Shown in pieces: positions 5,002 to 38,356 of a DNA stretch of 64,000 bases. The notes under the pieces are model-generated. The model saw only the letters and a list, made by a program, of their open reading frames with translations. It searched no databases and had not been told where the DNA came from. Position 1 is the stretch's first letter. Each line of letters starts with the position of its first letter. A program made the position numbers and the translations under genes. The stretch comes from a virus, in IMG/VR virus record IMGVR_UViG_3300008262_000126, positions 1 to 64,000 of that record. One strand, written 5' to 3'.

Positions 5002-5024
5002 AAGTAGGTACTAATTACGCAAAC

Positions 5025-5477: not shown

Positions 5478-5502
5478 AACACTCTCCTTACTAACACGTT
5501 AG

Positions 5503-5835
5503 TTAATTAATGTTCTTACTTGACTCCAAAAGAGCTTTTACCTTCTCTTCGAGATCTTGAATACGATCCAACATACGCAGTTTTTCGTGCTCCATCTGCT
5601 GAATTTTTTGCTCCAAATCCATCTGCTTTTGCCTCTCTGCTAAGTTGTCGCTAAGTAACTCTTCGTTTTTCTTACGCAACGACTCGTTGTCTACTTCCAA
5701 GGATTCAATTCGAGAAAGAAGACTTTCCTGGAATTTTGTGTTTGTGTCTTGGCTACTTCTTCGAAACCCAATCCAGGTAATCAACAGAGTAACCAGTGCG
5801 CTTATAGCTGCCGGGATTGTGTTTTCTTCGGTCAT
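5503..5835 (-). CDS. TM plus coiled-coil lysis-associated protein
   Basis: N-terminal TM and long coiled coil; sits between amidase and holin. Confidence 0.55.
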   Translation of the reverse strand: MTEENTIPAAISALVTLLITWIGFRRSSQDTNTKFQESLLSRIESLEVDNESLRKKNEELLSDNLAERQKQMDLEQKIQQMEHEKLRMLDRIQDLEEKVKALLESSKNIN

Positions 5836-10484: not shown

Positions 10485-11115
10485 CGTCTTCCTCTGCCTC
10501 CTCTTCGTCCCCCAAGATAACATCGTCTTCGATGTCTGATCCTTCGCTTCCAGAGGATCTCGCCTTCTTTACAGAATAGCGGTGTTTTTTACGCCAGCCT
10601 GCGTCTTTAATATCGAAGAAGATGTCCTTCTCCTCACGCTCGGCGGTTACTGGTTTGTTACACTGATTGCAGTTAACTTTAAGTTCAAACGCACTGTGAT
10701 CGTGCATAATTGAAAAGCGCGAAAGAAGTATCTTACAGTTTGGGCAATACAGCTTAATAAGCCGGCGCTCAAGAAAATCTTGAGCAGTTTGCTTCAAACT
10801 GACAATGTACTCCGCCACAGACTCAGAGGAGTTCTGATTGCGTGTCTTTCGGTCAAGCGCAAGGGCTCGTTCAAGTTGCAGATTGCGCTCGATGATGTCC
10901 TTCAAAGAAGAACTTAATCGTTGAATCATGTCAATGTTGTCTACTGGGTCATCTTGCGTCAGTTCCTGTAGTTTTGCTTGAACGCTCTCAACAATAATTT
11001 GATTGTTGATTAGCATTTCCAAATTGGCTTTATCATTTGGGGATGATAATGTAGCCAAGTCGTATTTATCCGAATAGTCCTTCAAAATCTCATCAAACCT
11101 TCGGTTCTTAGCCAT
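10465..11115 (-). CDS. putative terminase small subunit with CxxC...CxxC zinc ribbon
   Basis: Immediately upstream of and overlapping TerL; coiled coil; CPNC and CNQC. Confidence 0.5.
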   Translation of the reverse strand: MAKNRRFDEILKDYSDKYDLATLSSPNDKANLEMLINNQIIVESVQAKLQELTQDDPVDNIDMIQRLSSSLKDIIERNLQLERALALDRKTRNQNSSESVAEYIVSLKQTAQDFLERRLIKLYCPNCKILLSRFSIMHDHSAFELKVNCNQCNKPVTAEREEKDIFFDIKDAGWRKKHRYSVKKARSSGSEGSDIEDDVILGDEEEAEEDDVKSED

Positions 11116-21116: not shown

Positions 21117-21518
21117 ATGTTAGATTACGCATTTGGGGCCGGAGAATATTACGACAACGTGGATGATTTGCTTCAAGACGATTCAATGTTAGAGGTAGAT
21201 TTGACGATTAAGGGATTAAAAAAACGATTACGTATCCGCGCTCTGAGCTTTGCGCAGATGGAGAAAATTAACCAACTTTCGCAGAAGAACGGAGAAATGG
21301 ACAACACCGAGTTTACGGTAAATACTATTGTAGAGGGATTGATTCGTCCAAAAATGAATTCAGCACAGGCAAAGAAACTGCTTGATGCCAACGGGGAGGT
21401 AGTACGTGAACTCGCGGAAAATATTTGGACTCTTGGAAAAATATCAAAAGACGCTTTCGAGAAGTACCTCGAGACACTTGAAAAGGACGCCTCTATATCG
21501 GAGCCCGTCGAAGAATAA
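21117..21518 (+). CDS. tail assembly chaperone (G-like)
   Basis: LRIRALS and GLIRPK patterns; between tube and tape-measure genes. Confidence 0.7.
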   Translation: MLDYAFGAGEYYDNVDDLLQDDSMLEVDLTIKGLKKRLRIRALSFAQMEKINQLSQKNGEMDNTEFTVNTIVEGLIRPKMNSAQAKKLLDANGEVVRELAENIWTLGKISKDAFEKYLETLEKDASISEPVEE

Positions 21519-21534
21519 CGCAGTCGGTATTCTA

Positions 21535-21780
21535 ATGAAAACCGCCATATCCACAAAGGATGAACTTGCGATGTGGATAGATCATTTTTTAAATTCAACG
21601 CAGTATACGGCACTAAATGCGAAGAAGCTATCTAAGCTTAGTTACGCAGATATGGCCGCAATCATTGCAATAAAACAAAAATCTTTAGAAGCTAGCGTCC
21701 GCCGCAAACTTCAAAAACAAAAGAAACTGGAAGAAAAAGAGTTAGTTGAGGAGGCGGAGACGTTCAAATTATTTATGTAG
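21535..21780 (+). CDS. tail assembly chaperone, second ORF (T-like; possibly frameshift-fused)
   Basis: Frame open from 21406, overlapping the first chaperone; directly before the TMP. Confidence 0.5.
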   Translation: MKTAISTKDELAMWIDHFLNSTQYTALNAKKLSKLSYADMAAIIAIKQKSLEASVRRKLQKQKKLEEKELVEEAETFKLFM

Positions 21781-21790: not shown

Positions 21791-24700
21791 ATGTCAGATA
21801 GAATACAACAATTAGTAGGATTAATTCAAACGCTGCTGCTTTTAAAAAGTACTAGTGAAGAGGCTGCTAATGTTTTTGAGAAGGTTATACAAAGTAAGGC
21901 AAACGCGCATGAGGGTGGTTTAGCCGGATATTTAAAAGAAATTACAGCAGACGCTAAAACAGCTACTACAACACTAGCTATATTAGAAAAAGAGATTAAG
22001 GCAGTAAGCGCGCTTCCAGTAAGGGCAGCAGCTGACGAAACTCTTACTTCAGAAGGTACTCGTCCGGCACCCGTAGTTTCGGATGCGGCACGTAAGCGTA
22101 AGGAAGTACAAGATCGGATAGATGACGAACGAAAAGCACTTAGAACAGAGGTGCGTGGTAACAATAGGCCAACAGTTGTAAACGTACATACAGATAGGCT
22201 AAAAAATTATGAACTTTTGCTTGCCCAGCTAGACGAACAAATAGACGAGCGAGAAGACACTCTCAGGGATCTGATCAGACGAACGCAAACTAAAATGAGA
22301 ACGCCGGCAAAAACCTCTCGTTCAAGTTCACCAGTTGCGGATCCTGAGTACGCAGACATGAAATGGGCGCTTACTACACCGGATACTCGTTCCGCTACAA
22401 GTTATGCTGTTACACCGAATCGAGGAGGACGGGTCAGCGTAGCTCAATCGGGCGGAGCAAGGCCTCCCGAAAACGCCTCCGTTTCGGCAATTGTTAAATA
22501 TGTGAATACTCAACTGCGTCACGAAAATCCAGCCGAAACTCGTCCGGAAATTGCCCCGATTGTCGCCGAACTTCAAAAACTTGTAAAAGACCGAGAAGAG
22601 GCAACTGTTCCTGCGGACAAAAATAGAATAAATCAGCAAATTAAGCAAGCATTCAAAAAGATAAATCAATCTTCTGGCACAGTAAGCAACACACAGCGAC
22701 AAACGGCACAAGAATCAATTATTGCCCCAATTATTGAAGCATTGCGGGCAGTAAAATTAGACGACCCTACACTTAATGCGGCAATGTCTCCAGTAGCTAG
22801 CAGTTCTGAAATTGAGTCCGCTCTAACCAGAGCCGTTGAAATGTTGGTAACTAGACTTGAGAATGGTGCAGCAGGAAGAGTAGGAGAAACAGCTTTAAGT
22901 ACTGAAGGTTTTGAGTTTTTACGTCCGGCGGCTTTTGATCAGTTGCTGAAAAGATTGAAAACGGTAGTTGCAGAAGCAACGACTCGACCGGTAATACCAA
23001 GAAGCCGAACAGTCGATCCAGGTACTGCAGAAGAAGTAGATTCTTCTGCGTTATTTTTGGGAACTGACTTTAGCATACAAAATGCCGGAGAAGATGGTAG
23101 TCCTCAAGTAGTAGACGCTTTACGGAGTAGCCGAGTATTTCCGGGACAGGTAACCAGAATCGGTGCTAACATTTCAAAGTATATTCAATCACTCAAAGCT
23201 TCACTAAATCCTACGCGTCGTTACAGTTCGGAAGCGCAAGGCGTAGACGTTCGTGCCGGTTCCCAAGTAGTAGCCGGAAGCTCAAGCGCCGTTTTCGGTG
23301 GGGGCATGGACGCCGAAGTACAAAAGGCGGTTGACGCGCTCTTTTCAACCGTTATGCAGGACATAGAAGAAGGAAACATAAGGCCCGCTTCGATCGCAGG
23401 GCAGACTGTAGACTTGCCTGAATCTCTTGCAAAAATGGTTGTGGAGGCGATTCAATCTAGTTCAATTTTGTCAGAACACACAACAGCTTTCGGTAGAATG
23501 GCTGGAACTCGGGGACCTAGAGGGGCGATAGTTACTGGAGATCCAGTACGAAAGTTTGTTGCTTTGTTTGCGGGCGATTTAATAAATCAATATACTTCGA
23601 CAGGGGCTGTTTCAGATCAGTCCGCTAGTCGTTTTGTAGAGCAGACAGTTGCTCCGGAACAAGAACAGGAAGTTACGTTGGCAGCAACTCACGCAAAACG
23701 TTTGCGCGAAAGACTTGTTTATCAGAGAGATCAGGCAGATCTCAGTATGGTAACTGCGGCTCCAGCAATGGCTAATCGCTACAGAACTGAGTCGGCAAAG
23801 CTTGGCAAAGAGATACAGTTACTGGATGAGATTCTGGCTGAATCTGAAAATCCAGAAGAGGAAAAAAAGTTAGCGCAAAGACGTGGACAGATAGCACTTC
23901 CGGGCAGTAACACAGCTCCCGCGTTAACGCGAGATCAAGCACTAACTGTTTTATTTAAACAGTCTATTGGATCCATTCCTGCAACACCTGATGCGGTAGC
24001 GCCGATTATAAGCAAAGCTCAGGAAGTTTCTGCGGGACTTGCACAATCGGGACTTACAATTCCAGCAAGACCCTCTTATGGAACTAGTCCCGTACAATCG
24101 TTAGTAGAGTATATGACATCCGGTCAGTCTATGGCACTAGACCGTTATCAAACTACTCCAATTACGCAGCAGTTAGACTCAGCCGGTAAAGTGTCGTCAG
24201 GTCAGCAAAATCGAGAGTTTATCGAAATTATAAGCGATGCTTTTGGTTTATCTCGACAGTCTGCTTCTGCGGGTAATGTCATTACTGGTTTGTATCATGG
24301 AGCACGTGCGACAGACGCCAGCGGTAAAATGCTTGAGGGAGAAGAGCTTGATCAATCGCTTGGCGGTGGCTACAGAACAAAGAAAGGTTTGCAATCAATT
24401 GTTCAAGCATCCGCAGAGATGGGTAGTTATGGTTCCGGCGGTATTCCCTTAATTGAGTACGCTAAGTTAGCAACTTCAACCGACCTTGACGCAGAGGAGC
24501 AGAGTCTATTTCAAGAGGTGCAGGCAAAACTTCCGCATCTGCAAGCAATAGATTCTGATTCACTTAAGCAACTTGCTGAGTTAGACACGTCGATGGATCC
24601 CAAAGAGTTAATTAAACGCGTGTTGACTTTGGCAGCCCCAGCAATAAAAAATCAAATAGTTGCTTCAATTAGGCGACGAGGTGGCGCTGCCGGCATGGGA

Positions 24701-27700
24701 GTTGATGAAGTCACTCAAATGATTTCGGATTACGAAACAGCCGGGGTTGCTCCAGCAGGGTTTCAAGATGAATTTCGCGCTTTAGCGATGTTTGATCCTG
24801 CTAACATAAACACAACCGATGTATCTGCAGCGGTTAACCGATCGCTTTCGTTGTTCAGCAATTTATTAACTGACAACGTGCAGTCAGGCGAAGGTATGCC
24901 TCAGTTTGCAGCCCGAGTTTTAGGAAGACAGGACCGACTAGTTGGTACGGGTCCGGATGTAGCTGCAGCCGTTCCTGATCAAGGAGCGTCTTACAGCTTG
25001 ATGGGCAAGGGTGCAGAAGTTGCAAATCAAGAGTCTGGTCAAGTTGTCGGTGGTACGTATGGTCGCAATGTAGAAAATCAAATAAAAATTCAAGAAGCAA
25101 TGAGTGAGTTTGAGCAGTTAACTGCTGAAATAGAGGAAATGCAGAGAAGGATAGCTTTAGCACCTCACGAAGCTGATAAAGTACTTCCAGTTATCGAGCA
25201 AAAAAACAATCAACTTAAGATTCTTAAACAAAAACTTGATACTTACAAAGCATCAGAACCAGATCCTATTTCTCAAAAATTTGAAGCTCTTTCCACAATT
25301 GCCCAAATGGACAATATTGACCCCGCAACAAGAAGTGCTGCAATTTACGATTTAGGCATTATGCAGGAAATTTTTAATCAAACTGGCCGATACCAGATTG
25401 ACGAATCCCAAGGATACGGAACTGGTACTCAAGAGCAACGCCTTACTAATTTGATGGCTCATAAAGCAAAGTTAGACCGTTTGCAAAAATTGAGAGAAGA
25501 ACGAGCAGCGTTAGAGGCAGAATCACCTGGAGATGGTCCCGCTAAGGCAGTTGAAGCTGTAATTAAAGAATCAGACGTTGATGGAGAAATTGCAGCTGTC
25601 ACAAAAGACATTAGCGACATGAAGTCCGAAGGTACGGGGTCAGAAAAAAAAGTTGATGCTTCACCTTATGCAAATATGAATATGACGGAATTGGAAGATC
25701 TTTATCAGAGATCTTATCAAAAATATGATAGAGCTATGTCTGCTGTACCTGGAATAGAAGAGGCAACCCAGAGATACCACAACTATGAAGGCGAGGATGA
25801 CGAACAAGAATTAGAAATCTTAGTAAAAGCTCTTGAAGGCGCACGGGAAAATAACCCAGAGGTTGCAAAACTGTATCAAGAGCATCAAGCAGTAAGTGAC
25901 GAGTATGAACGCCGTATCAAGGCTAATATCGAAAATAACCGCGCAATACAAGAAAAATTATCTCCTGCTGAAACTTCGGTTATGGCAACTTCAGTGCCAG
26001 GAACAATAGATGAAGAAATAGCAATAGACGAAAACGCCGTACCTTTAAAAATCCCTAGAATAAATCTTACAGAAAGTAAAGATATCACTGATGATGTTAC
26101 GGCTGAGGATAAGTCAGTTTTTGTACACCCGGCTACTGTGGAAGCACAACTTATAGAATCTCCGGCCTTTACGGCATTTTTAGCTGGTAAAGAAAATCAG
26201 ATAATAAGTGGTAATCAAGATCGACTAGCCATCCGTCAAGATGCGGAAACAGGTGCACTTACGGCAGCGGTGGCTGATGGAGCGAGTTCGTCTTGGTTTT
26301 CCGCGAGGTTAGCCAACATGCTAGCAGAAGAGGCTGTTAACTTACCTACAGACGAGCCTTTTACAACCGAATCAATTTTATCGAGAGTTAATAACAGATC
26401 GGCACAAGAACAAGTAGACAAAATTTTAGAATATTTTACTGACGAGGACTATCAAACCCGTTATCAATTGCAACGTATGGGTTTAGAAAAAAATGATAAA
26501 TCGAAAGAAAAATTTAAAAAATTTTTACAACCTTTTGAAGAGGCCGGTACAAGCCCAACTGTCAGAGAACTTATAGCATTTTTACACGGTGAAAAAGCTG
26601 CAAACGACCCTGCCAACATTGGCCAGGTTGCCGGTGCTACGTTTGCCGGTTATCGCAGAACAAGAAGTTCAGAAGGCTACAAGCATGAATTTCTTACTGC
26701 TGGAGATGCTTTAATAGAATCGGCTGATTTAGGTATTGCTAAAGAGACGCTGGGCGAAAATAAAACGAATCCGGACGGAACTCCCTACACAGGACCGCAA
26801 ACTGCAGGGATTATATCAACTGAAAGTGGAATAGCTCACCCAGGAAAAGTTTTGACAATTGAGTCAAAAACTCCGGCACGTGTTTTCTTAGCGTCCGACG
26901 CATATTCACATAGCGGAGAATTCAGCCGACTTGATCCGGAAGTTGATGCTGGAGGTTTTGTTAACTTAGGTGAAAGACTGCTTCTTGACGAGGGGGAGTT
27001 AGGTACTCGGCAAGACGACCGAAGTTTTATAGGCATTACAGGAAGCGAGCAGACGGGTCCTGTAGTAAAGACCGGCGGACTTGCTGAAGAGGGATTTACA
27101 GGATTAGAATTTACCGATCAGTTAGAAGCGTACTTAGCACAAGAAAAACGTAAATTAAGTCAGATAAATCAATTGCTGACCGACAGGCCGGATATAGATA
27201 AAGAGTTAGAAAGAGAACGTCAAGCATTACTTAAATCTGCTGAAGCCGAAGTTGAACAACAAGGACAACTTGCAGAAGAAATAACAAACACACATCGAGC
27301 GATTGCTGATGAATATGACGCGGTTGTTGACAGATTAATGAAAAACAGATACGCCGGTCCCGAAGAAAAAGCTCAAGATAGCGAAAAACATCGAAAACTG
27401 GCGCAAACGCCGGAAATGCAAGAAGTTTTAAAAGCAAGAAGAGAGGCGTTTAAAGCTGAGCAAAAGTACAAGCAGATAGTAGCCGAAAACCCGCCGACAA
27501 GTGCAGAAAAAGCTAAAGTAGTTACAGAAAACAATATTCAGGCATTAACAGAAGAGCTTACAAAAAGAGGAGTAATCTTACCGACTGAGACAACACCAAC
27601 AGCGGAAACTGTGATACCGGTAACTGACGTTACATCGGTTGCTGAAGAACCAAAAAGAATTGCAGATGAGCCTGTTAAAGTCAGTGCCGAAATTAAAGCA

Positions 27701-30700
27701 TCGCCCGAAGAGATTCAAAAAAGAAAAGCAGACCTAGATTTACAAATAGCCGAAGCCGCAAGAGAAGCAGCACAATCACAACAGGTTATAGAGTTAATGC
27801 AAAGACAGGCCCAGGGTTTAGACACGGAAGATAGCGACATTCGTTTTGTTGTTGACAATACAGGCATTCCGGTAAGTTACGAAGATAAGCAGGTAATTGA
27901 CCGAACTTCTTTGCGTCCGCTAGTGCGGACAAAAATGACTGTTGATGACACTGGTGAATCAGGATTTGTTTCTAATTTGAATGTTAGAGATATCGTAGAT
28001 CAAGCAGAAGCAGTCAAGCCAACCGCCGAGTTAATGGACGAAATCGGTAAAATGTCCGATGCCGATCTCGCTGCTGTCAAAATGCCTTCAAAGGTTCTTA
28101 CAGACGAAGAGAAAGAAAAATATCAATACTTAAGACAAGCGTCGAAACAGGCAAAAGAAGAAGCACGTAAAATCTATGAAGCTGACACTCCCCTTGGTGA
28201 AGCAATTCGAAAATATTACAGAATTACCAACGTAGAAGAGCGGGACAGAATGACGCTGGGAGACATAGGAAGCCCGGCAATTCCCGGATTAAAGGAAGCC
28301 GTAGCTGAGTACGAATTACAGCGGGGTATATCACTTGGATCAGACGAGCAAACGGGTAAGCTTGGAAAGGCGAGTGAAGCCACGCCACTACAACTCGCCG
28401 CTCGTTTATTCAGATCGTCTCGTGCAGCAGTCAGAGCGTATGAAACAGAATTTGGAGTAGAGCCTGCGTTTAGTGCGCGCGAGGTAATGGACGAGCTCTT
28501 AGCATCTTCCGCAAGAGCCGAAGTAGATAGCGCTCCAGCTGGATCTGCAGAAACAGCGGTAGCATTGGACAAAACTATTTCAAGCTTTGAAGGGGGAATA
28601 CCTGAAATTAAAGGCTCTACTGATAGAGCACCGAGAAGACCTAGAAGAGCCCCGGCTGATGTAGTTGCAGACGTTGAACAACCTTACACTGAGAATCAGT
28701 TAAAGTATGCTCGAGCACAGGTAAGGGCTTTAGCTGGCAGAACCGACCTCACAGCCGAACAAAAAAGACAATTAAGCGAAGCAAGAAAAAAATTACACAA
28801 TTATGCAATGAAGCGGTTGACGACTAATTTCGGGGACAACAAAGGCGTGATGCAAATTGCAAACGTAGTTGCCGGTTTAACTCCTCCTGATTGGGCAAAA
28901 GATGACGTGCAGAGTGCCCGTGTTTCGGCAATATCACAAGCAATGGCTGACTTAAAACCAGGACAGTTGGCGAAGTTGAAAGACGTCGATCTTAGAGACC
29001 CAGTGCAGATGGATATACTTTCAAAAGATCCGGCGCTGCAGCCAATAATGGCGTTGCTGGCTGATCAGGATATCGATGCCGCGCTTAAGTATAGATCAGG
29101 CACGACGGAATACGATGAGGCAAAAGGACTGCTATCTGCAATTGAAGGGGCAAAGAAACGCTTACCTGTTCCTGAGCCAACGGCTGGCGTACCGACTGAC
29201 GCAAGGCGATTGTTTTTTGACTTAGAAACAAACTTTGCAAAAAAACCTGAAGACCGGTTAATCTTTCAAGCAGCTACAGGCGTTAACGACGGAAAAGTCA
29301 GCGACATGTACGCAGTTCCCTTAGACTCGAGCGCTGAGGAGATAAACAGAATAGCGGTGGACCCCACAATTCCCGATGACGAGAAGAGAAAATTAATTAG
29401 AGAACTCGCTCTTAAACGAGCTGGAAAACCTCCTTTAGTTGAAGGCAGAGCCAGCGGTAACGACGTTAGTTCGGGAGTTATCGATAATCTAGTTAATGCT
29501 GCAATGTCGGGACGTCAAATACTTACTCAAGGCCAAATACGCGGAGATTTACAGAGTCAAATTCTAGCTGCCACTACAGTAGCAGGGCATAACATTGAAA
29601 CCTTTGACTTGCCCACAGTATACGGCGGCGAAATGGCTGTTCCGGATGCAGTAAAAGCAAAAACAGAAGACACATTGCTGATGAGTCGTAACATGTATCC
29701 AGGATCTCACACACTGAGTGATACATATGAGGTGGTTACCGGAGATCCGCTAGTCAACGCTCACGATGCACGCGCAGACACGGAAGCAGTGCAAAGAATA
29801 TTTCCTCAGGTTTCTGATCCAGAGGAACGTGCCAAAATAACAGAAGCATATTTAGCAAAACATGGAATTACAATGGATTCCGCTGTTGGTCAGCTTGTTG
29901 CTACACCTAAGATAGCAGACATTGCAGATACGGAAGAACGAAAGAAAGCATCTAGACAAGTGGCTGAGGCGCACGCTTTCTATCAACCTTTAGCGGACAT
30001 GCAGGACTTTACACGCCGTATCGCAAAAAGCGGCGGTAAAACAATACTGAGGGACGCTGATAAAACAGTGGCTGCTGAACAAGGCTGGTACGATATGAGT
30101 CCAGCTGCGAAAGCTAGTTTATTCGAACGAATGAACAAAATGTTTGTAGGACATACTAAGCTCAAAGGGAAAAAAATAGAAGAACTTGACGACGCAGAGT
30201 TAGGCGAGTTTGTTAAGGAAATAAATGCTACCTACTTAGAACCCAATGCAGATGCGGCAGTAGGTGGGGATTTCGGCGGAATGAAAAGACTGCTGGAGGA
30301 AAAAGTAGGCGGGAAAATGGCGTTCTCTGATTTTCGAACACCAGCTGAACGCCTTGCAGCCATTAAAGGTAGAACAATTGAAGATGTAATGAGCACAGCA
30401 GGTTCTTCGGGTGTTAAAGTTGGTCCTGCCATAAGTAAAGAAACAGTGGGCGATGCAATTGAAGATATATCATTAGCAACTGAAAGACCGACAAAAGTGA
30501 AAACTCCCGGATCTGCACCATCGGTAACTGCAAGTACTTCGGACGGCGGCTCAAAAGAACCCCCAAGAGAACCACCAGTTACTTTCTCAGACGACGCGGA
30601 CTCTGGCGAGCGTGGTGGTCCTGGCGGCGGTATTACTACAATAGCTTCGGCTACTATCGACACGTTGCATGCCGGTGCGGTAGAGATAAACATTCATGGT

Positions 30701-33700
30701 GGTAACGTTACTATAGATGCCAACTTCAGTGCAGGCGCTGCAGAGAAAATGCAAAAATCGTTAGTGTACATATCAAATAAAGATGGTATGAACGTAAACG
30801 GCGATGTCACTAGTGTAGGTACGGGCGGTGGTGGCGGTGGCTATCGACGGGTGTCAGTTGCTGACAGATCTATATTAAATCAACTTGACGCAGCAAAAAA
30901 CCAGATAGCTGGGCAACTTCAAACAGAAACTGACCCAGCAACACGAGAACGGTTGCGCGGTAACCTCAATGAGGTCAGCAGGCAAGCAATTCGCGCCATT
31001 ATTGAGCCTAAGGTAAAAGCAATTGATAGCGAAGGTATGGAACCTTACGTCAACGAACGTTTTTACTACGGGGATGAAACAACAGATTCTAAAGAATCGT
31101 TGACATATTACAATGACGCGGTGGCACAGGCACATCAAGACCTCACTACACAACTTGAAGCTCAACAGGCAATTCCAGAAGGAACTGACGGAAGAGATGA
31201 AGAAATTCAGCGAATACAAAAGCAAATATCGTTAGTTGAGGAACTTATCAATGCGCTTACAGAACTTAATCAAGCAGAGCAGCGTGTAGGTAGTGCAACT
31301 TCAACTAGAGCAATTGTTGATCCTACTGAAGTAAAAAAACCAGCATATCCTACGAATAATAGCGGTTATCGAAAGTTGTCTCCAGAAGATCGTGCTTCAT
31401 TAGCCGTACTCGACGCTACAAAAAATTCAATAAGCGAGCAGCTGAGAACTGAGCAAGATCCAGAAGCCAGGGCAAGATTAAAAGAAACACTAACCGGTGC
31501 GAGCAAAAAAGCAATTGCAGATATTATTAAACCGAAAGCAACAAAGCTACTTGGCTATGGTTTTGTAAATACTGTCGACGCCTTATCAACATCTCCAGAA
31601 GACTCATTAGTTAACTATAGTCAGGCGGCGCAGAGCAAACTTAGCGAATTAAACGGTAGATTGTTTATGATCGAGAGCGAGCGAGAAGATGCTCCGGGTC
31701 GTGAAGAAGCAATCGAGAGAACTAAAAGAGAAATACAGCAAGTCCACGAGCTTATAGACGCTTTGACCGAGCTTAATCAGGCTGAGCAACGAGTTGGTGC
31801 AGCTGGTGCAACACGTAATGCTGAAAGTCCTTACGGACCAAAACCAACTGCAGATCCGCGTGCAGGAGCTAACAAATATAGAAAAGTTTCGTTTGCGGAC
31901 CAGGCTTCTTTTAATGTTCTGGAATCTACAAAAAATGAGGTATCCGCAAGACTGAGAGATGAGACCGATTCAGCAGCACGTGACGCGCTGCGTCAGAGTC
32001 TTGTAAATGCAAGCGAGCGGGCTATTAACGAAGTTATTAAACCTAAAGCGGCGAAGGTATTAAATCCGACGCAGCTTGCGGCGCTTTCGGCTTTGCCAAT
32101 GGGTCCTGAAGAAGCACTAGTCTCTTACAATGAAATGGCCCAGTATAATCTCAATAATCTCTCAACCGAATTGGCTACACAAGAGGCACTGCCTGAAGGT
32201 ACAAGCGGAAGAGATACAGAGATTGAAAGATTAAAAGCAGAAATAGCCGCGGTTGAGGAGCTCATTAATGCACTGACCGAATTAAACGCTATAGAACAAC
32301 GCGTTGGATCGGCAAGTGGTACACGCAATGTAAACAGTCCGTACGGTACTACATCCGGAACTGGTACGGGAACATCAGCAAGTAAATACTACTCAAGAAA
32401 AGCGAAAGAAGACGAGCAGGTATTTCTACAGTTAGCGCGAAACTCATTCGATCAATCAGCGGGGTCTATGGGTATTGCGGGCGGAACAACGGCCGATTCT
32501 CGTAAATTTTTAACAGACCTTACGCGCAGTACTGCAACGACAATGATTAACAGTTCGGGAATACAAGCTCCGGGAATGGCCGCCGATATTGCAGCGATTG
32601 CAGCAACAAGTCCCGAAGTACAGTCAGCTTATGATGATGCAGCTAAAAGTTTAACAGATTTTAGTGGAAAAGTTGGCGGTACAATTACAGACGTCGCTGA
32701 CGACTTATTTACTGTAGTTTCTGGATTAGAGAAGCTGAAAGCGGCGCTTACTCCTATAGCAGCTACCTCTCCTCAAGCAGCAGCAGCTTTGGCGGTTGTT
32801 CAAACTGCTATTGACGAAACAAGTGCGGCTGGAAAAGAACAGCGGGGAACTGCAGGTGTAATTGAAACGGACAATCGAAAGAAAGTTTCGCTTGTCGAAG
32901 AACAAATGCAAGCAGCAGCAAGTAGACCTGGATTTTTTGCCGGCGGCAGACGTGAAAGAGAAATGAGGCAGATACAAGAGGGATACATAAGAGACACCTT
33001 CGGTAAGGAAGGACTAGACGCCCTTATGCACCGAGGTAGAATAAGAGCATACACAGCAACAGGAAAACGTGTCGACATGGCGCAAGCAACTGTACAAGAG
33101 CAGCGAGACACAGTTGAACGATTACAAAAACAAGGTATTAATATTACTGCTGAAGATATGACAGGTATAGCACGAATGTCCGGCAGAGTCGAACAGACAA
33201 AAAGATCTGCACCGATGGGCGATAAGTTATTCTATGCTGCGTCAAAAATTAGAGACACGCAGAGTGTAGTTCAAGCGGCAGTTGATACTGTTACTAGTCT
33301 AGCAAACATACCGCAAATGGCCGGAGGAATGATTCAGCAGTTTGCGAGTAGTGCTACAGGATCTAACAGGGTAATGACAACCGCAAGAGGGTTAGCACTT
33401 GATCCAGAGAATTATACAGCCGCATTAAATGCGGCTGATATGCAGAGAAAGCAATTCGGCGGCTCATTAACTTCAAATCTAGGTCAAGTTACTAGCTTTA
33501 TTCCCTTGTCAAACGCGTACGGTGTAGATATTGGAAAGTCTGTAAAAGTAGCTAGAAAATTAGCCGCGTTTGACCCAGCTCAGGGTATGGAAGGTGCTGG
33601 CATAGCAATCAAAGAATTTCTATCTGGTAACGTTTCGTCTCTCTCACGTCGATTTGAAATTAATCGATCCGCGCTTTCTAAAATTAATACCGGCGATGCA

Positions 33701-36700
33701 ACACAAATGCTTGATAGTCTTGATCAGCTTCTTTCAAGTATGGGCGTTACTGATAGACTTATTGATGAGCAAGCAAACTCTATGGCGACTAAATACGACA
33801 AGATGATCGGTAATCTGGAAAGTGTGCAAATTAGCTCAACTACGGCGATAGTCGACTTTATCACTCCGGCGCTTGAATCTTTAATTGGAGAGCAGTCGTA
33901 CTTTGGTAAGAATGTAAAAGAGCGTTCACTTAATACCGTGCTTAAAGAGACCATTACATCTTACGGCGATGACATATTAAGCGATCCGGAAGCTGGATTA
34001 GACAGCGTTAATATTGGCGGCAGTTTAAGCACGTTTACTTCGCAAATGGACACAATTTTAGAAGCGGCAAATAAACGAATGGCCGGAGAGGCGGGAAGGT
34101 ATAATAGTGCTACTGGCGCTTCTGTATCAGTTCCTGGTTATCGTCTACTCGGTAACATGAAGCCTCAAGAACGAGCAAATATTCAATTTGATGCGCTGCT
34201 TGGGCAGGCACAAGGATTAAATGCAACTCAAGCAATTATGCAAGCCATGCGAAATAATCCCGGAGATTACAACTCAAGTCCTGAATTTTTAAATCAACGC
34301 GAATCTTTAAAAACTAGACAAGTGAAAGTTGATCCGGTTGCTTACGCAGAAGCTTACAAAAAAGCCGAAGCTGGTTTGCTTGTAGCGGATCAAGGCGCAA
34401 CAGATCTCAGCGGTCTGGGCTTGGGGTATATAAACTTTAATGCCGAGCCCGTAAAAGAAAAACCTCTTATGACTAAGGGAAGAGTAAGAAGACAAGTTGA
34501 CGCTGATACGTTCGATATAGAAATACCGGGACGCAAAGACTTGGTCAGGGTTAGAACGGGTGTTATAGACGCACAGGAAAAAGGAACGCAAGATGAGCTT
34601 GCAGCCCGTGTTGGCGGTGCCGATATAATAGGAATGGACCGAGCCATGATTGGTGGGGAGTATAAACCCGGACAGGGACCGGAAATTACATTAGTAGGAA
34701 CTTTAAAAAACATTGACGAGAACAATAGAGTAGTTGCTCAACTGTTAAATAGCGAGGGTAAGAATTACTCGCTTGAAATGATAGCAACCGGAAATGCATC
34801 TTCAGCTTTTATGCAAGGACTTGATAAACAGACTATAGATAGTCTTGCATACATAGAGAAGGTAGTTGCCGATAATGGAGTAGGTCCGCAAAACAGAATA
34901 GCTAGAGATTTAAACCTTGGAGGAGCTCCCGAAATTTCAGAAGAAGTGCGTAGTTCCTATTTCTGGAATAAATATGGATTAGGTATAGGTGGATCCGCAA
35001 TAGCAGGGGGAGCAGCCGGTTTAGGCGGAGCAGCGCTTGCTACCAACGCCACACTTGGTACAGCTGGATTGGCAGGCCTTGGTGGATTAGTAGCTGCTGA
35101 AATAGCCGCTGCAATAGCCCTCCCTGCCGTGGCGGCCGTGGGTTTATATGCAGGCGGGGCTTATGTGTCAGATCGGCTAGATAGTTCTCCCGAAAAAATG
35201 AGAGAATTGTATAAAATGCAAAGTGATCTAGATCGACAAGATGCAAAAATGAACATATTTAATACATTTGCAGATCAGGCAAACTTAAATGCTGAGCAAG
35301 TTGGTAAATATGTGGGTGGTGCTAAGTATCGATCTGACATGCCAAGTAAGGAAATTGTACTTACTCCGGGATTTGGACCGGGAGCTCCAATTATTCCAGG
35401 TACTGCACCAACAAAAACAGCTTTTGAAATTATGCAAGATAGCAAGGCTTCGCTAGGACAGGTTTATTTAGCAAACTACGAAGAAGCTTCCAAAAGTGGA
35501 CAAGAGCGGTTTGCAACAGCCGGCGACGCAACTAAGAGAATATTAGAACGTCAGGTGTACGATCCGGTATCAGAAACCATGATGTCTTATGTTGATTACG
35601 AGGCTCAAACAATAGCGCTTAAGAAAACAGCCGATGTTGATCCGACGGCATACAGAAAATTTGATGCGATGCGCGGAGAGATTTTAAAACCTATAGGGCA
35701 AACTGGAGCACTTATTGAAAATGAGAAATTAGTTGAGCGGGGCATTAAATATGGAACCAGGTTAGACAAACGAGCATTAGCTGAAGCCGAGGCTTCTCCA
35801 TTTCGAGCAGACGTTGCAGATTTAACTAAAAAAAGAGACGACGCGTTTAATGCAGGAGCCGTAGCTGAAGGTCAAAGATATAAAACTCAAATTGATAAAG
35901 CTAATGCTGAAATAGAAAAAATTACGTATACAGATGCTGAATGGGATAAAATACCAGAAGCTGCGCGTTACTTAATAATGTCGGCTGAAGAAGTCGCAAA
36001 TATGACTGCAGAAGAAATAAGATTTGCAGCTGATCAAACCTACCAACAAGGGCTTAATCCAGTTGACTATAAGCAAGAAGCAAAAAACTTTTTTGACGGT
36101 ACAATGGACCGTAATTTTCAAAGACGGCAACAGCGTGTAGACACAACTTTAACTGCTTTTGCAAGACAGTCAATTATGGGATTAGGCGATGCGTCGGCGT
36201 TGCCTAATGACATAGCTAGACAAGTTGTTAACTCTGGTGGAGCGGGGGTAATTGACAACACCCCAGAAGCGAGAGCTGTGCGTATGGTAGGGCGTTCAGG
36301 CTTAATGCCAAAAAATAGAGATTCTGCGCTAGACACTGTAGCAATGCTTACCGAAGCACAAAGAGCAGCAGTAAGAGAGCAATTAGATATTGCAAGAACA
36401 AATCGTCAAGTAGCTTTAGCTAATGCACCAGAAGCTCAATTATATAAATCAGGATTTACAAATTTTGTTATGGCAATGAATAAAGCAGGAGCAACTGCAG
36501 AGGATCTTGGTCGATCTTTTATGAACACCATGAACATGATGTCCGAAGGCAATCCTAGATACGGCTTAGACTTAGCACAGCAAATGACTGGTTTTAGCTA
36601 CGAGGCTATGATCGGTATGCAACTTCGTCCGCGCACTGGTGTAGATGCCGAGGGTAATCCTATATCAAGTCTTAACGGCGCGAACGGTATGCCTTACGGG

Positions 36701-38356
36701 TATAATGCAAAACCCGGCGAGATTATTAGTGGGCCAATGGTCATGCCGTACACTTCAGGCCCTCGAGGAACAATAGCGTACTCGAGAGACATGATGGCAG
36801 TAGGTGCAAACGGTGTTCGAGAAGGCGCTTTAGGTATTGCTCCTTCGCAATGGCAGCAGTTTGTATCAAACGCTACAAACGCAAATGCCGAGTTACAAAG
36901 ACGTGCAATGAGTAATGCAATGCAAGAACGCGATTTGAATAAGAATCACCAGCGTAATCTTGAAGATATTACTCGAAACGGCATGCGTCAGTTAGAGAGC
37001 ATTCATTTAAATTACACACGAAACATGCAACAGATGACCATGCAAGCAGACCTTGTTAAGGGAGCGACCCGAGCAAATGCAACAAGAAGCATTGCAATGG
37101 CTGCTATCGACCCTACAAGCAAAGCAGCTCTTAACAGCCAATACTGGGCGCAGGATATGTATTCTCAGCATCTAGGTCAAGGCGATTCGAAAAATTTCTT
37201 AAAAGACAGCGCAAACATAGCAACTCTTACAGCGATAGATCCTTCATTGTCTGCAGACATAAGCGCATTAGAGACTACAAACGCCGCGTATGAAAGCTCA
37301 GCCATAACAGACCCAAATAGGCAGAATCTGCAAGATGCAAAAAGAGCGACTATAGAACCAATTTTAACTAAGCTACGGGGCCTTATTGAAACTGAAGAAG
37401 ATCCAATAAAAAAAGCCGCACTCCAGACGGCCCTTGTTCGTTTAAGTCCAGATGCATCAAAAACAATAGCAGCTCAAACTGAAAATGACAAATGGTTAAA
37501 GCAGACGCTCGGTGATAAAATAACTCAAAAGCAATTAGGTCAACAAATTGCTGACCAAGAGTTTCAAAATCAGTTTAGACCGTTGGATATTGCAAATGAC
37601 TCAGCAAGTTTAGCTGAAGCAGGAAAATCAAAAGATCCTTTAGCTTTTCTTAATGCAAAACGTTCAAGTCTGTCAATGTACCGCGGATTTGCTCAGTCTG
37701 ATATTGGTTTAGCTGAAACTACAAATAGCTTGACAGGTTTGTTAGGAACTGGTAGTCTTTTTGAAACGAATACTACCGAAGCGTTTAAGCAAATAGCTGA
37801 AGTTGCGGGTAGCGCGACTCAGGGAGTTCTTTATAGTCTTGACGATTTTGAAACCTCGTTTCAACAACAGATGGAAGATGCTCTTAGAAACTTCGAACGA
37901 CAGCGTTTGGATATGATCCAGGCCTTTGCTGATGCTGCGGTTGAAATTGCGTCAATTGTTCCTGAAGAAATGGTACCAATTATGCAAGCTACAAGTGCCT
38001 TTATGAATACGCAACGACAAGCCGAGTTACTCTGGCTGTCTGGAAGAACAGACGAAGCCAACGCACTTGCCTACCAAGGCATGCTAAAGCTTGGCGAAGT
38101 TGTGTACGGTGAAGGTAAGGGTAAAGAATATGCAGACAAATATAGTCAGAACTTTCAAGACATGGCAGACGTTGCAGCACGAGACGTTCCTCAAGGTGAC
38201 TTAGGAAAGTTTGCTGTAAAGACAGAAGACGGTTGGGCATTGCTGGTAAAAGAGACTAAGTCCGCACGAGTATACGACAGGCCTCCTCCTAATAAGGATA
38301 AAGAGACTCTGAATCAAGGGAATGGTCCGTTTGTTGCACCGGGTGGCAAAGGCTAA
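21791..38356 (+). CDS. giant tape measure protein (5521 aa) with PP2C-like, DEDDh exonuclease and SNase-like domains
   Basis: Canonical position after tube and chaperones; TMP core (LAAFDPAQGMEGAGIAIKEFLSG..SLSRRFEI, ~33400-33900); coiled coils; hydrophobic segment. Confidence 0.85.
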   Translation: MSDRIQQLVGLIQTLLLLKSTSEEAANVFEKVIQSKANAHEGGLAGYLKEITADAKTATTTLAILEKEIKAVSALPVRAAADETLTSEGTRPAPVVSDAARKRKEVQDRIDDERKALRTEVRGNNRPTVVNVHTDRLKNYELLLAQLDEQIDEREDTLRDLIRRTQTKMRTPAKTSRSSSPVADPEYADMKWALTTPDTRSATSYAVTPNRGGRVSVAQSGGARPPENASVSAIVKYVNTQLRHENPAETRPEIAPIVAELQKLVKDREEATVPADKNRINQQIKQAFKKINQSSGTVSNTQRQTAQESIIAPIIEALRAVKLDDPTLNAAMSPVASSSEIESALTRAVEMLVTRLENGAAGRVGETALSTEGFEFLRPAAFDQLLKRLKTVVAEATTRPVIPRSRTVDPGTAEEVDSSALFLGTDFSIQNAGEDGSPQVVDALRSSRVFPGQVTRIGANISKYIQSLKASLNPTRRYSSEAQGVDVRAGSQVVAGSSSAVFGGGMDAEVQKAVDALFSTVMQDIEEGNIRPASIAGQTVDLPESLAKMVVEAIQSSSILSEHTTAFGRMAGTRGPRGAIVTGDPVRKFVALFAGDLINQYTSTGAVSDQSASRFVEQTVAPEQEQEVTLAATHAKRLRERLVYQRDQADLSMVTAAPAMANRYRTESAKLGKEIQLLDEILAESENPEEEKKLAQRRGQIALPGSNTAPALTRDQALTVLFKQSIGSIPATPDAVAPIISKAQEVSAGLAQSGLTIPARPSYGTSPVQSLVEYMTSGQSMALDRYQTTPITQQLDSAGKVSSGQQNREFIEIISDAFGLSRQSASAGNVITGLYHGARATDASGKMLEGEELDQSLGGGYRTKKGLQSIVQASAEMGSYGSGGIPLIEYAKLATSTDLDAEEQSLFQEVQAKLPHLQAIDSDSLKQLAELDTSMDPKELIKRVLTLAAPAIKNQIVASIRRRGGAAGMGVDEVTQMISDYETAGVAPAGFQDEFRALAMFDPANINTTDVSAAVNRSLSLFSNLLTDNVQSGEGMPQFAARVLGRQDRLVGTGPDVAAAVPDQGASYSLMGKGAEVANQESGQVVGGTYGRNVENQIKIQEAMSEFEQLTAEIEEMQRRIALAPHEADKVLPVIEQKNNQLKILKQKLDTYKASEPDPISQKFEALSTIAQMDNIDPATRSAAIYDLGIMQEIFNQTGRYQIDESQGYGTGTQEQRLTNLMAHKAKLDRLQKLREERAALEAESPGDGPAKAVEAVIKESDVDGEIAAVTKDISDMKSEGTGSEKKVDASPYANMNMTELEDLYQRSYQKYDRAMSAVPGIEEATQRYHNYEGEDDEQELEILVKALEGARENNPEVAKLYQEHQAVSDEYERRIKANIENNRAIQEKLSPAETSVMATSVPGTIDEEIAIDENAVPLKIPRINLTESKDITDDVTAEDKSVFVHPATVEAQLIESPAFTAFLAGKENQIISGNQDRLAIRQDAETGALTAAVADGASSSWFSARLANMLAEEAVNLPTDEPFTTESILSRVNNRSAQEQVDKILEYFTDEDYQTRYQLQRMGLEKNDKSKEKFKKFLQPFEEAGTSPTVRELIAFLHGEKAANDPANIGQVAGATFAGYRRTRSSEGYKHEFLTAGDALIESADLGIAKETLGENKTNPDGTPYTGPQTAGIISTESGIAHPGKVLTIESKTPARVFLASDAYSHSGEFSRLDPEVDAGGFVNLGERLLLDEGELGTRQDDRSFIGITGSEQTGPVVKTGGLAEEGFTGLEFTDQLEAYLAQEKRKLSQINQLLTDRPDIDKELERERQALLKSAEAEVEQQGQLAEEITNTHRAIADEYDAVVDRLMKNRYAGPEEKAQDSEKHRKLAQTPEMQEVLKARREAFKAEQKYKQIVAENPPTSAEKAKVVTENNIQALTEELTKRGVILPTETTPTAETVIPVTDVTSVAEEPKRIADEPVKVSAEIKASPEEIQKRKADLDLQIAEAAREAAQSQQVIELMQRQAQGLDTEDSDIRFVVDNTGIPVSYEDKQVIDRTSLRPLVRTKMTVDDTGESGFVSNLNVRDIVDQAEAVKPTAELMDEIGKMSDADLAAVKMPSKVLTDEEKEKYQYLRQASKQAKEEARKIYEADTPLGEAIRKYYRITNVEERDRMTLGDIGSPAIPGLKEAVAEYELQRGISLGSDEQTGKLGKASEATPLQLAARLFRSSRAAVRAYETEFGVEPAFSAREVMDELLASSARAEVDSAPAGSAETAVALDKTISSFEGGIPEIKGSTDRAPRRPRRAPADVVADVEQPYTENQLKYARAQVRALAGRTDLTAEQKRQLSEARKKLHNYAMKRLTTNFGDNKGVMQIANVVAGLTPPDWAKDDVQSARVSAISQAMADLKPGQLAKLKDVDLRDPVQMDILSKDPALQPIMALLADQDIDAALKYRSGTTEYDEAKGLLSAIEGAKKRLPVPEPTAGVPTDARRLFFDLETNFAKKPEDRLIFQAATGVNDGKVSDMYAVPLDSSAEEINRIAVDPTIPDDEKRKLIRELALKRAGKPPLVEGRASGNDVSSGVIDNLVNAAMSGRQILTQGQIRGDLQSQILAATTVAGHNIETFDLPTVYGGEMAVPDAVKAKTEDTLLMSRNMYPGSHTLSDTYEVVTGDPLVNAHDARADTEAVQRIFPQVSDPEERAKITEAYLAKHGITMDSAVGQLVATPKIADIADTEERKKASRQVAEAHAFYQPLADMQDFTRRIAKSGGKTILRDADKTVAAEQGWYDMSPAAKASLFERMNKMFVGHTKLKGKKIEELDDAELGEFVKEINATYLEPNADAAVGGDFGGMKRLLEEKVGGKMAFSDFRTPAERLAAIKGRTIEDVMSTAGSSGVKVGPAISKETVGDAIEDISLATERPTKVKTPGSAPSVTASTSDGGSKEPPREPPVTFSDDADSGERGGPGGGITTIASATIDTLHAGAVEINIHGGNVTIDANFSAGAAEKMQKSLVYISNKDGMNVNGDVTSVGTGGGGGGYRRVSVADRSILNQLDAAKNQIAGQLQTETDPATRERLRGNLNEVSRQAIRAIIEPKVKAIDSEGMEPYVNERFYYGDETTDSKESLTYYNDAVAQAHQDLTTQLEAQQAIPEGTDGRDEEIQRIQKQISLVEELINALTELNQAEQRVGSATSTRAIVDPTEVKKPAYPTNNSGYRKLSPEDRASLAVLDATKNSISEQLRTEQDPEARARLKETLTGASKKAIADIIKPKATKLLGYGFVNTVDALSTSPEDSLVNYSQAAQSKLSELNGRLFMIESEREDAPGREEAIERTKREIQQVHELIDALTELNQAEQRVGAAGATRNAESPYGPKPTADPRAGANKYRKVSFADQASFNVLESTKNEVSARLRDETDSAARDALRQSLVNASERAINEVIKPKAAKVLNPTQLAALSALPMGPEEALVSYNEMAQYNLNNLSTELATQEALPEGTSGRDTEIERLKAEIAAVEELINALTELNAIEQRVGSASGTRNVNSPYGTTSGTGTGTSASKYYSRKAKEDEQVFLQLARNSFDQSAGSMGIAGGTTADSRKFLTDLTRSTATTMINSSGIQAPGMAADIAAIAATSPEVQSAYDDAAKSLTDFSGKVGGTITDVADDLFTVVSGLEKLKAALTPIAATSPQAAAALAVVQTAIDETSAAGKEQRGTAGVIETDNRKKVSLVEEQMQAAASRPGFFAGGRREREMRQIQEGYIRDTFGKEGLDALMHRGRIRAYTATGKRVDMAQATVQEQRDTVERLQKQGINITAEDMTGIARMSGRVEQTKRSAPMGDKLFYAASKIRDTQSVVQAAVDTVTSLANIPQMAGGMIQQFASSATGSNRVMTTARGLALDPENYTAALNAADMQRKQFGGSLTSNLGQVTSFIPLSNAYGVDIGKSVKVARKLAAFDPAQGMEGAGIAIKEFLSGNVSSLSRRFEINRSALSKINTGDATQMLDSLDQLLSSMGVTDRLIDEQANSMATKYDKMIGNLESVQISSTTAIVDFITPALESLIGEQSYFGKNVKERSLNTVLKETITSYGDDILSDPEAGLDSVNIGGSLSTFTSQMDTILEAANKRMAGEAGRYNSATGASVSVPGYRLLGNMKPQERANIQFDALLGQAQGLNATQAIMQAMRNNPGDYNSSPEFLNQRESLKTRQVKVDPVAYAEAYKKAEAGLLVADQGATDLSGLGLGYINFNAEPVKEKPLMTKGRVRRQVDADTFDIEIPGRKDLVRVRTGVIDAQEKGTQDELAARVGGADIIGMDRAMIGGEYKPGQGPEITLVGTLKNIDENNRVVAQLLNSEGKNYSLEMIATGNASSAFMQGLDKQTIDSLAYIEKVVADNGVGPQNRIARDLNLGGAPEISEEVRSSYFWNKYGLGIGGSAIAGGAAGLGGAALATNATLGTAGLAGLGGLVAAEIAAAIALPAVAAVGLYAGGAYVSDRLDSSPEKMRELYKMQSDLDRQDAKMNIFNTFADQANLNAEQVGKYVGGAKYRSDMPSKEIVLTPGFGPGAPIIPGTAPTKTAFEIMQDSKASLGQVYLANYEEASKSGQERFATAGDATKRILERQVYDPVSETMMSYVDYEAQTIALKKTADVDPTAYRKFDAMRGEILKPIGQTGALIENEKLVERGIKYGTRLDKRALAEAEASPFRADVADLTKKRDDAFNAGAVAEGQRYKTQIDKANAEIEKITYTDAEWDKIPEAARYLIMSAEEVANMTAEEIRFAADQTYQQGLNPVDYKQEAKNFFDGTMDRNFQRRQQRVDTTLTAFARQSIMGLGDASALPNDIARQVVNSGGAGVIDNTPEARAVRMVGRSGLMPKNRDSALDTVAMLTEAQRAAVREQLDIARTNRQVALANAPEAQLYKSGFTNFVMAMNKAGATAEDLGRSFMNTMNMMSEGNPRYGLDLAQQMTGFSYEAMIGMQLRPRTGVDAEGNPISSLNGANGMPYGYNAKPGEIISGPMVMPYTSGPRGTIAYSRDMMAVGANGVREGALGIAPSQWQQFVSNATNANAELQRRAMSNAMQERDLNKNHQRNLEDITRNGMRQLESIHLNYTRNMQQMTMQADLVKGATRANATRSIAMAAIDPTSKAALNSQYWAQDMYSQHLGQGDSKNFLKDSANIATLTAIDPSLSADISALETTNAAYESSAITDPNRQNLQDAKRATIEPILTKLRGLIETEEDPIKKAALQTALVRLSPDASKTIAAQTENDKWLKQTLGDKITQKQLGQQIADQEFQNQFRPLDIANDSASLAEAGKSKDPLAFLNAKRSSLSMYRGFAQSDIGLAETTNSLTGLLGTGSLFETNTTEAFKQIAEVAGSATQGVLYSLDDFETSFQQQMEDALRNFERQRLDMIQAFADAAVEIASIVPEEMVPIMQATSAFMNTQRQAELLWLSGRTDEANALAYQGMLKLGEVVYGEGKGKEYADKYSQNFQDMADVAARDVPQGDLGKFAVKTEDGWALLVKETKSARVYDRPPPNKDKETLNQGNGPFVAPGGKG
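30842..32386 (+). repeat. three tandem ~170-aa repeats inside the TMP (525, 510 and 510 nt)
   Basis: Units start at 30842, 31367 and 31877: YRxxS..D...L...KN....L..E.D...R..L ... ELI(N/D)ALTELN..EQRVG. Confidence 0.9.

Follow-up and report, generated by a model that had tools for sequence, protein, structure and literature searches.

A staphylococcal nuclease-type domain beside a candidate membrane segment in the probable tape measure protein of an uncultured phage

The virus record IMGVR_UViG_3300008262_000126 of IMG/VR (72,320 bp, 95% complete, ∼45% GC content) contains a single uninterrupted open reading frame (ORF) of 5,521 amino acids (aa) that is probably the gene for a giant tape measure protein (TMP). 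The locus raises the question of what a nuclease-like domain would do inside such a protein and on which side of the host membrane it would do it. The window analyzed here is the 64,000-nucleotide stretch at positions 1–64,000 of the record, and the giant ORF lies within it at 21791–38356 on the plus strand, taking up 22.9% of the 72,320-bp genome. A first-pass annotation, made from the sequence alone, had proposed a staphylococcal nuclease (SNase) domain followed by a glycine-zipper membrane segment. The four peptides that it quoted and the Gly/Ala run were all recovered in frame 1 of 34478–35170, inside the giant ORF.

The SNase-type region was placed at aa 4227–4361 (34469..34873, plus strand). 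When 1.84 billion representatives were searched exhaustively with HMMER, aa 4215–4400 being the query (E≤0.001), eight relatives were obtained, all of them giant proteins of 1,614–5,665 aa. The profile of the resulting nine-sequence alignment (the window protein and its eight relatives, termed A1) matched a thermonuclease in the PDB with E=1.8e-9 over chain residues 9–121, which is nearly the whole enzyme. The Pfam family PF00565 was matched by eight of the nine members of A1 at E≤0.01 (best 2.9e-12), and four of the relatives (P0006, P0007, P0008, and P0010) scored 27.1–37.1 bits, above the cut-off of 21 bits. The AlphaFold2 (AF2) model obtained with A1 had a mean predicted local distance difference test score (pLDDT) of 77.8 and a predicted TM-score (pTM) of 0.70, with most of the core above 88. 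Foldseek comparison of this model with the PDB gave 50 listed matches, and all 50 were staphylococcal nuclease at a probability of 1.00 (E of 3.0e-8 to 1.3e-7, target TM-score of 0.73–0.83). On the strength of profile and model, the likeness is far beyond chance, and aa 4227–4361 is a true SNase/thermonuclease OB-fold, as the first-pass annotation had suggested.

This identification does not come from the window sequence alone. A phmmer search of the PDB with the SNase piece yielded no match at E≤10, the single-sequence AF2 model had a pLDDT of 38.5 and was unusable, and tblastn of the region against 50,697 phage records gave no match. When the canonical SNase of a relative was compared with the phage records by tblastn, two weak matches were obtained, neither of which lay inside a TMP. 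A search of longer proteins with A1 gave none among 7,997 scored candidates of 365–2,000 aa, which is weak evidence. The JGI pipeline labels two of the relatives “endonuclease YncB (thermonuclease family).” A match to phrog_8809 (2,317 positions, function unassigned) was set aside as uninformative, because it involved only the SNase-like part of that family (positions 1099–1212) and was also obtained with 11 of 14 control genomes.

Residues of the active site were surveyed in 16 distinct sequences, namely the nine in A1 and seven viral-contig copies (L009, being identical to L002, was dropped). In SNase, D21 and D40 are Ca2+ ligands, T41 contributes through its backbone, and R35, E43, and R87 are catalytic. 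The corresponding residues of the window protein, with numbering and roles that we take to be those of SNase, are D4239 (D21), R4255 (R35), D4260 (D40), E4263 (E43), and R4313 (R87). The motifs D-x-D-T, R-x4-D-x2-E, and D-x3-R are invariant in A1. Equivalents of D19, D21, T22, R35, D40, and E43 were kept in all 16 sequences, that of R87 in 15, and that of D83 in 14; the position of T41 is occupied by Ala in 15 of 16, and that of Y113 is aromatic in 14 of 16. The first-pass annotation had read from the window alone that equivalents of the catalytic D, R, D, E, and R look preserved, and this holds across the family (16/16 for the first four and 15/16 for the last). The sequences compared are only 28–48% identical to the window, and invariance of the metal and catalytic set at this divergence argues for a working active site. 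The domain looks catalytically complete and is a predicted nuclease.

The SNase fold is followed by a conserved juxtamembrane linker at aa 4362–4395 (34874..34975, plus strand), for which the family consensus is G.GP.N..A..LGLG...IS.E.R..YF..KY. It is present in all 16 relatives, and the residues at alignment positions G151, N154, A157, G163, I168, S169, and Y181 are invariant in A1. The AF2 model predicts helices at 152–159 and 170–181 in this linker, with pLDDT values of ∼45–75.

Beyond the linker lies a Gly/Ala-rich hydrophobic segment (aa 4396–4460; 34976..35170, plus strand) that is a candidate for membrane insertion or for part of a channel. It begins ∼35 aa past the end of the SNase fold and ∼55 aa past the last of the quoted motifs, where the first-pass annotation had put it. 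In a 19-residue Kyte-Doolittle (KD) scan of the 5,521 aa, values above 1.6 were reached only at aa 4420–4460 (maximum 2.1), with a second, weaker Gly-rich peak on its N-terminal side at aa 4399–4417 (KD 1.35). An uncharged run of 47–87 aa, 46–63% of it Gly/Ala, occupies the same position in 16 of 16 relatives, and the conserved motif D..D.S..K.RELY comes after it. The same analysis of lambda gpH revealed Gly/Ala runs at 113–147 and 695–729 with KD maxima of 1.5–1.6. Judged by its sequence, the segment is a TMP-type feature that is longer and more hydrophobic than the runs in gpH, and its candidacy as a membrane segment draws on hydropathy, conservation in all 16 relatives, and this likeness to gpH. 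The “glycine zipper” of the first-pass annotation, which over 68 aa amounts to three GxxxG and 20 small-xxx-small spacings, is largely a matter of composition, given that Gly plus Ala make up >50%.

The giant ORF (21791..38356) is taken to be the TMP gene of a long, probably non-contractile tail because of its position and because no sheath-sized gene precedes it in the ORF list. The place of the tail assembly chaperones is held by an overlapping ORF pair in different frames (21117–21518 and 21406–21780; 21117..21780, plus strand), the first member of which matched phrog_389 (“tail protein XkdN-like,” a kind of tail chaperone, E=2e-4), and capsid-module ORFs lie 5′ of this pair. On the 3′ side of the giant ORF are large unannotated (tail-tip) ORFs and a tail-fiber assembly chaperone (PF16778, E=1.3e-16). 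This gene order is what the assignment, which the first-pass annotation had also made, rests on, the curated TMP families matching weakly. The two chaperone-like ORFs overlap in a +1 frame relation, and a search of their overlap revealed no canonical in-frame XXXYYYZ −1 slippery heptamer.

The protein also has two TMP-type traits, the Gly-rich hydrophobic segment in its C-terminal part and internal length repeats. The latter are three tandem repeats of ∼170 aa (aa 3018–3530; 30842..32380, plus strand) that are 41% identical to the first copy in protein alignment A3, each ending in ELI(N/D)ALTELN..EQRVG.A. From their sequence and arrangement, they look like length modules of a ruler. The repeats were shown by direct alignment; Tandem Repeats Finder (TRF) detected no DNA-level tandem repeats in the giant gene, and self-BLASTP of the protein gave no off-diagonal match at 1e-5. 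By eye, the relative P0003 appears to have fewer copies. Tail length follows a rule of 0.15 nm per residue, so a tail of ∼0.8 μm would be expected if the chain were mostly helical.

The C-terminal 1,061 aa that follow the hydrophobic segment (35171..38353, plus strand) are conserved in P0003–P0006, P0009, and P0018 and presumably, by analogy with other TMPs, form the end at the tail tip, which is the first to be expelled. Searches of the PDB, PHROG, and Pfam with this region were all without a match. Wall-degrading domains occur in other TMPs, such as those of mycobacteriophages and Pb2 of T5; the lack of a match here means that no such domain is available to fix the topology.

The protein belongs to a small family of giant TMPs of 1,614–6,477 aa, none of which comes from a cultured phage. 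When the window protein was compared with seven relatives by BLASTP, a conserved C-terminal core (aa ∼3363–5520) and a second conserved region (aa ∼311–1257) were delineated, separated by a variable middle. Conservation within the family is highest in a motif block at aa 3903–4011 (33497..33823, plus strand), which is 77–100% identical in eight viral contigs and whose 109 aa served as the query for finding related loci. The SNase module was present in all eight close viral loci, ∼300 aa past this block, and in none of seven distant TMP loci. When five relatives were scanned whole, SNase was the sole Pfam family at E≤0.001 in four. The module formed by the SNase domain, linker, and hydrophobic segment falls inside the conserved core while the modules of the middle vary, implying that the SNase is the constant enzyme of these proteins and that the others are exchangeable.

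Exchange is most evident in P0012, which is 88–94% identical to the window protein yet carries an extra block of ∼1,060 aa (P0012 aa ∼1848–2907), pointing to recent gain or loss of a module in the middle of the TMP. A Nudix domain (PF00293) was recorded in P0012, without being located to this block, and also in P0013; P0003 has a NUDIX match of 31.8 bits. In P0005, aa 1843–2349 matched cpYpsA SLOG (34.6 bits), together with a sub-threshold match to NADAR. An HExxH string was seen by eye in P0009, but Pfam did not recognize it. At 6,477 aa, P0012 places the family among those with the longest TMPs seen, and it exceeds the 5,002-aa TMP of phage P23-45, which its authors call giant.

In the window protein itself, three enzyme-like regions could be placed N-terminal to the hydrophobic segment, as the first-pass annotation had stated, but two of them are weak. 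A PP2C-like phosphatase signal lies at aa 1475–1536 (26213..26398, plus strand), where PF13672 (PP2C_2) matched with E=0.0036 and 17.3 bits against a cut-off of 24; the full domain is probably longer. An ESM Atlas feature search with aa 1400–1900 returned PP2C_2-type clusters in 25 of 30 matches (top score 0.94), and the region is best regarded as a lead, not as proof. The other is a region resembling DEDDh-type 3′-5′ exonucleases (aa 2460–2710; 29168..29920, plus strand) that is common to P0003, P0004, and P0009. Its alignment (A2) contains the invariant motifs FFDLET, GHNI.xFDLPT, and AH.A..D, and the A2 profile matched four sequences in the PDB, each carrying the name “exodeoxyribonuclease III” (lowest E=7e-4); Pfam gave no match to the region at E≤0.1. 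A peptidase domain was not found in overlapping pieces of the window protein searched against Pfam. The conserved region at aa ∼311–1257 was considered as a possible virion RNA polymerase like that of P23-45, but this was unsupported. The conserved DxDxD motif is absent, a D.D.D string occurs in five of eight family proteins at non-homologous places and is missing from the other three, and aa 300–1260 gave no match in the PDB or, by tblastn, in the phage records.

The explanation that we favor, and to which we would give about an even chance, is that the TMP carries a latent, virion-delivered predicted nuclease that becomes tethered at the entry pore, on the cytoplasmic side, and cuts host nucleic acid. 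The TMP would be made late, threaded in the tail tube, and held extended by chaperones and the tube, and the SNase domain would stay silent during assembly through the extended state of the chain and the low Ca2+ of the cytoplasm. Upon infection, the TMP would be expelled, and the Gly/Ala segment would enter the cytoplasmic membrane of the host and form part of the conduit for DNA. The SNase domain would then refold where the DNA enters, anchored to the membrane and sharing its side with the other N-terminal modules (PP2C- and DEDDh-like in the window protein, Nudix and SLOG in its relatives), most likely the cytoplasmic side. Cleavage of host nucleic acid before phage gene expression could bring about host shut-off and a supply of nucleotides, and host nucleic acid as the likely target would fit the RNR, ThyX, and MazG of the phage itself.

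The cytoplasmic side is somewhat favored over the periplasmic side for three reasons. The N-terminal modules (NUDIX, cpYpsA SLOG, DEDDh-like, and PP2C-like) belong to types that act on cytoplasmic substrates. In P23-45, an active RNA polymerase forms the N-terminal part of the TMP and transcribes pre-early genes (PMC10770324), and the glycine zipper of the effector Tde1 is needed for permeabilization and entry (PMC10240207). Placement of the modules on one side, as the first-pass annotation inferred, presupposes that the one hydrophobic region provides the sole span and that the chain remains uncut.

Several findings weigh against this reading, the first of which concern the identity of the domain and of the protein. 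Although eight of nine family members matched PF00565, the window protein alone scored 17.6–18.8 bits, under the cut-off of 21, and over the second half of the profile only; its SNase is the most diverged of the nine-sequence set. The match to phrog_305 (tape measure) is weak (E=0.0033, on a 331-aa piece), and no Pfam TMP family was matched in 31 overlapping pieces of the giant protein. The hydrophobic segment, 65 aa long in the window protein, is not of constant length, the relatives having 47–87 aa. The absence of an above-threshold match to a curated TMP family and the divergence of the window SNase would suit an explanation in which the ORF encodes another giant virion or ejection protein, or in which the nuclease domain is a decaying, functionless passenger. 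This is very improbable, for the order of chaperone-like pair, giant ORF, and tail-tip ORFs, the tandem length repeats, and a Gly/Ala hydrophobic run like that of lambda gpH all point to a TMP, and invariance of the catalytic residues over 16 sequences speaks against decay.

A further point against a nuclease directed at host nucleic acid lies in the active site itself. The nucleotide-contact residues K84, Y85, and Y115 of SNase are unconserved, being E, N, and Q in the window, and on these substitutions the specificity or activity may differ from that of SNase. The altered K84 and Y85 positions suggest a change in substrate handling, and it is conceivable that the fold handles the DNA of the phage itself, gripping or piloting the leading end through the pore or trimming or nicking it once. 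In that case, the role of the conserved “catalytic” residues would be to bind metal and phosphate. The domain adjoins the putative channel segment in every relative and sits in the conserved core instead of among swappable cargo, as this explanation would have it. We nevertheless consider it doubtful, because the full set of Ca2+ ligands, the general base E43, and both arginines are kept in 15–16 of 16 sequences, a pattern typical of active enzymes, and non-catalytic SN domains such as that of Tudor-SN have lost these residues.

The remaining objections concern the compartment in which the enzyme would act. Millimolar Ca2+ is required by SNase-type enzymes, which typically work outside the cytoplasm, and a periplasmic site would fit this better than a cytoplasmic one. 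A TMP exits the tail with its C terminus in front, and simple forward threading would put the SNase on the outer side of the membrane. Phage DNA fills the cytoplasm in which the TMP is synthesized, and an enzyme active there would be self-harming. It is fair to infer, as the first-pass annotation did, that a non-specific nuclease at a DNA channel would need control.

These objections lend weight to a serious rival, in which an active SNase works outside the cytoplasm, at the periplasmic or cell-wall face where Ca2+ is available, and degrades nucleic acid met in the envelope (such as matrix or extracellular DNA or the DNA of competing elements). We regard it as a minority possibility, and the same standing is given to its corollary that the enzyme would be harmless in the low-Ca2+ cytoplasm of the virion-building cell. 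Consistent with it are the requirement of SNase-family enzymes (YncB and YokF type) for Ca2+ and their usual extracytoplasmic location, the YncB label that the JGI pipeline gave to two relatives, and the expected first exit of the C-terminal 1,061 aa, and self-toxicity would be solved without extra assumptions. On the hub of BtI1, too, an SNase-related domain takes the place of the tail lysozyme and lies on the outside (PMC2147016). Against an extracytoplasmic site, the Nudix, SLOG, PP2C-like, and DEDDh-like modules would lie on the same side without obvious periplasmic substrates, a periplasmic nucleic-acid target is not evident, and the N-terminal RNA polymerase of the P23-45 TMP must reach intracellular DNA.

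A local influx of Ca2+ through the freshly formed pore could reconcile the cytoplasmic and periplasmic sites, although this is pure speculation. A related idea, to which we attach only a slim chance, is that the first infecting virion leaves a Ca2+-gated gatekeeper behind in the host membrane. It would be silent in the low-Ca2+ cytoplasm of virion assembly, would be switched on only at the open entry pore, and, still tethered there, would shred membrane-near host DNA and later foreign DNA. Were it true, the domain would be a nuclease that the virion delivers for superinfection exclusion or against competitors, a phage-borne mirror image of the host defense nuclease SNIPE discussed below.

The remainder of the genome encodes a terminase with an intein-like insert, a portal, Amidase_2, class II RNR, MazG, ThyX, primase, DnaB, family A polymerase, RecA, and two PD-(D/E)XK nucleases, besides two glycosyltransferases and a methyltransferase. 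The gene set is that of a lytic-type phage. The large terminase (7893–10523, minus strand) is 876 aa long, and its insert at residues 96–426 matched PF14890 with 31.7 bits (cut-off 35.8). GT1/GT4 and GT2 glycosyltransferases and a methyltransferase (48354–49571, 61191–61784, and 61832–62527) lie among the replication and nucleotide genes and could modify either DNA, as self-protection from a virion nuclease, or virion proteins. No cultured relative was found, the best DNA polymerase match being 28.7% identical (Pseudanabaena phages), and the capsid match is 23% identical (Bacillus phages). A search of genome contigs with the 109-aa conserved stretch produced three distant matches, 36–40% identical over ∼50 aa and all from Spirosoma, which on their own indicate neither a prophage relative nor a host.

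The locus bears on a general question, since the fate of a TMP after it leaves the tail, and the side on which its parts come to lie, is still largely unknown. A conserved enzyme beside a membrane-insertion segment would be a built-in reporter for TMP topology, through its activity, metal dependence, and location. An active SNase would mean that the virion delivers a non-specific nuclease, made in advance, to the site of genome entry, which raises the matter of how the phage spares its own DNA. It would also extend the role of giant TMPs as vehicles for enzyme delivery, so far shown for one RNA polymerase.

Compared with known members of the SNase family (PF00565; COG1525, YncB), the domain has the same OB-fold and helices, the DxDT, RxxxxDxxE, and DxxGR motifs, and the Ca2+-ligand and catalytic residues. 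It differs in being embedded at residue ∼4,230 of a 5,521-aa structural protein, not in a small secreted enzyme, in the sub-cut-off Pfam score of the window copy, and in the changed equivalents of K84, Y85, and Y115. Known enzymes are preceded by a signal peptide or lipid anchor, whereas a linker and hydrophobic segment follow the domain here.

A parallel among TMPs is gp96 of Thermus phage P23-45, a 5,002-aa TMP whose N-terminal part is the virion RNA polymerase mentioned above and which has a transmembrane region, the authors proposing that the polymerase sits at the TMP pore (Chaban et al. 2024, PMC10770324). Both are giant TMPs of long-tailed phages that carry a nucleic-acid enzyme. No sequence relation was detected when three parts of the window TMP were compared with the 50,697 phage records by tblastn. 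The window protein has a predicted nuclease adjoining the candidate membrane segment instead of a polymerase at the N terminus, its family has no conserved DxDxD motif, and no metallopeptidase domain was found in it.

A nuclease joined to a repeated GxxxG hydrophobic stretch is also seen in Tde1, an effector of the Agrobacterium type VI secretion system (T6SS). In Tde1, a glycine zipper that its authors found to resemble the C-terminal zipper of Burkholderia TMPs is coupled to a DNase and is required for membrane permeabilization and translocation into the prey cell (PMC10240207). Unlike the SNase considered here, Tde1 is an Ntox15 DNase with the zipper N-terminal of the nuclease, and its delivery is by the T6SS. 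It is paired with a cognate immunity protein, a kind of gene that was not recognized in the present genome. BtI1, a prophage-like element of Bacillus thuringiensis, encodes a baseplate hub with an N-terminal SNase-related domain whose purpose the authors term “not obvious” (PMC2147016). The two cases share an SNase-type domain fused to a tail-tip structural protein in a long-tailed lineage. They were compared by description, and the carrier in BtI1 is a gp27-like hub, not a TMP, for which no adjacent membrane segment is described.

In being a huge chain of enzyme modules thought to be co-delivered with DNA, the protein resembles the polyvalent proteins of phages and conjugative elements (Iyer et al. 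2017, PMC5512222), although the terms “tape measure,” “SNase,” and “staphylococcal” are absent from that text. Of this polyvalent character, the SNase is firm in the window protein, and the DEDDh-like and PP2C-like regions are weak. Swapping of modules between relatives is likewise seen in TMP-related effectors of contractile injection systems (CIS) with exchangeable domains, such as Sle1 (PMC13277306). Unlike polyvalent proteins, the window protein lacks a recognizable hallmark processing peptidase, and its SNase resides in the conserved core, not in the swappable part.

Among the papers listed in searches of the open PMC and bioRxiv literature, none describes an SNase domain inside a TMP. 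Fusions of TMPs with enzymes, of a DNase with a glycine zipper, and of SNase with a hub are known already; what is new here is the SNase as an enzyme family of TMPs, its placement in the conserved core welded to the candidate membrane segment, and a small family of TMPs of 4,400–6,500 aa. The proposed arrangement has its nearest counterpart on the host side. SNIPE is a GIY-YIG nuclease anchored in the host inner membrane that cuts phage DNA at the site of TMP entry, and its tethering keeps the nuclease from the chromosome (bioRxiv 10.1101/2025.11.03.685801). In both, a nuclease is, or as proposed here would be, tethered at the inner membrane where a siphovirus genome enters. SNIPE is host-encoded, belongs to another nuclease family, and acts against the phage, whereas here it would be the phage that brings the tethered nuclease itself.

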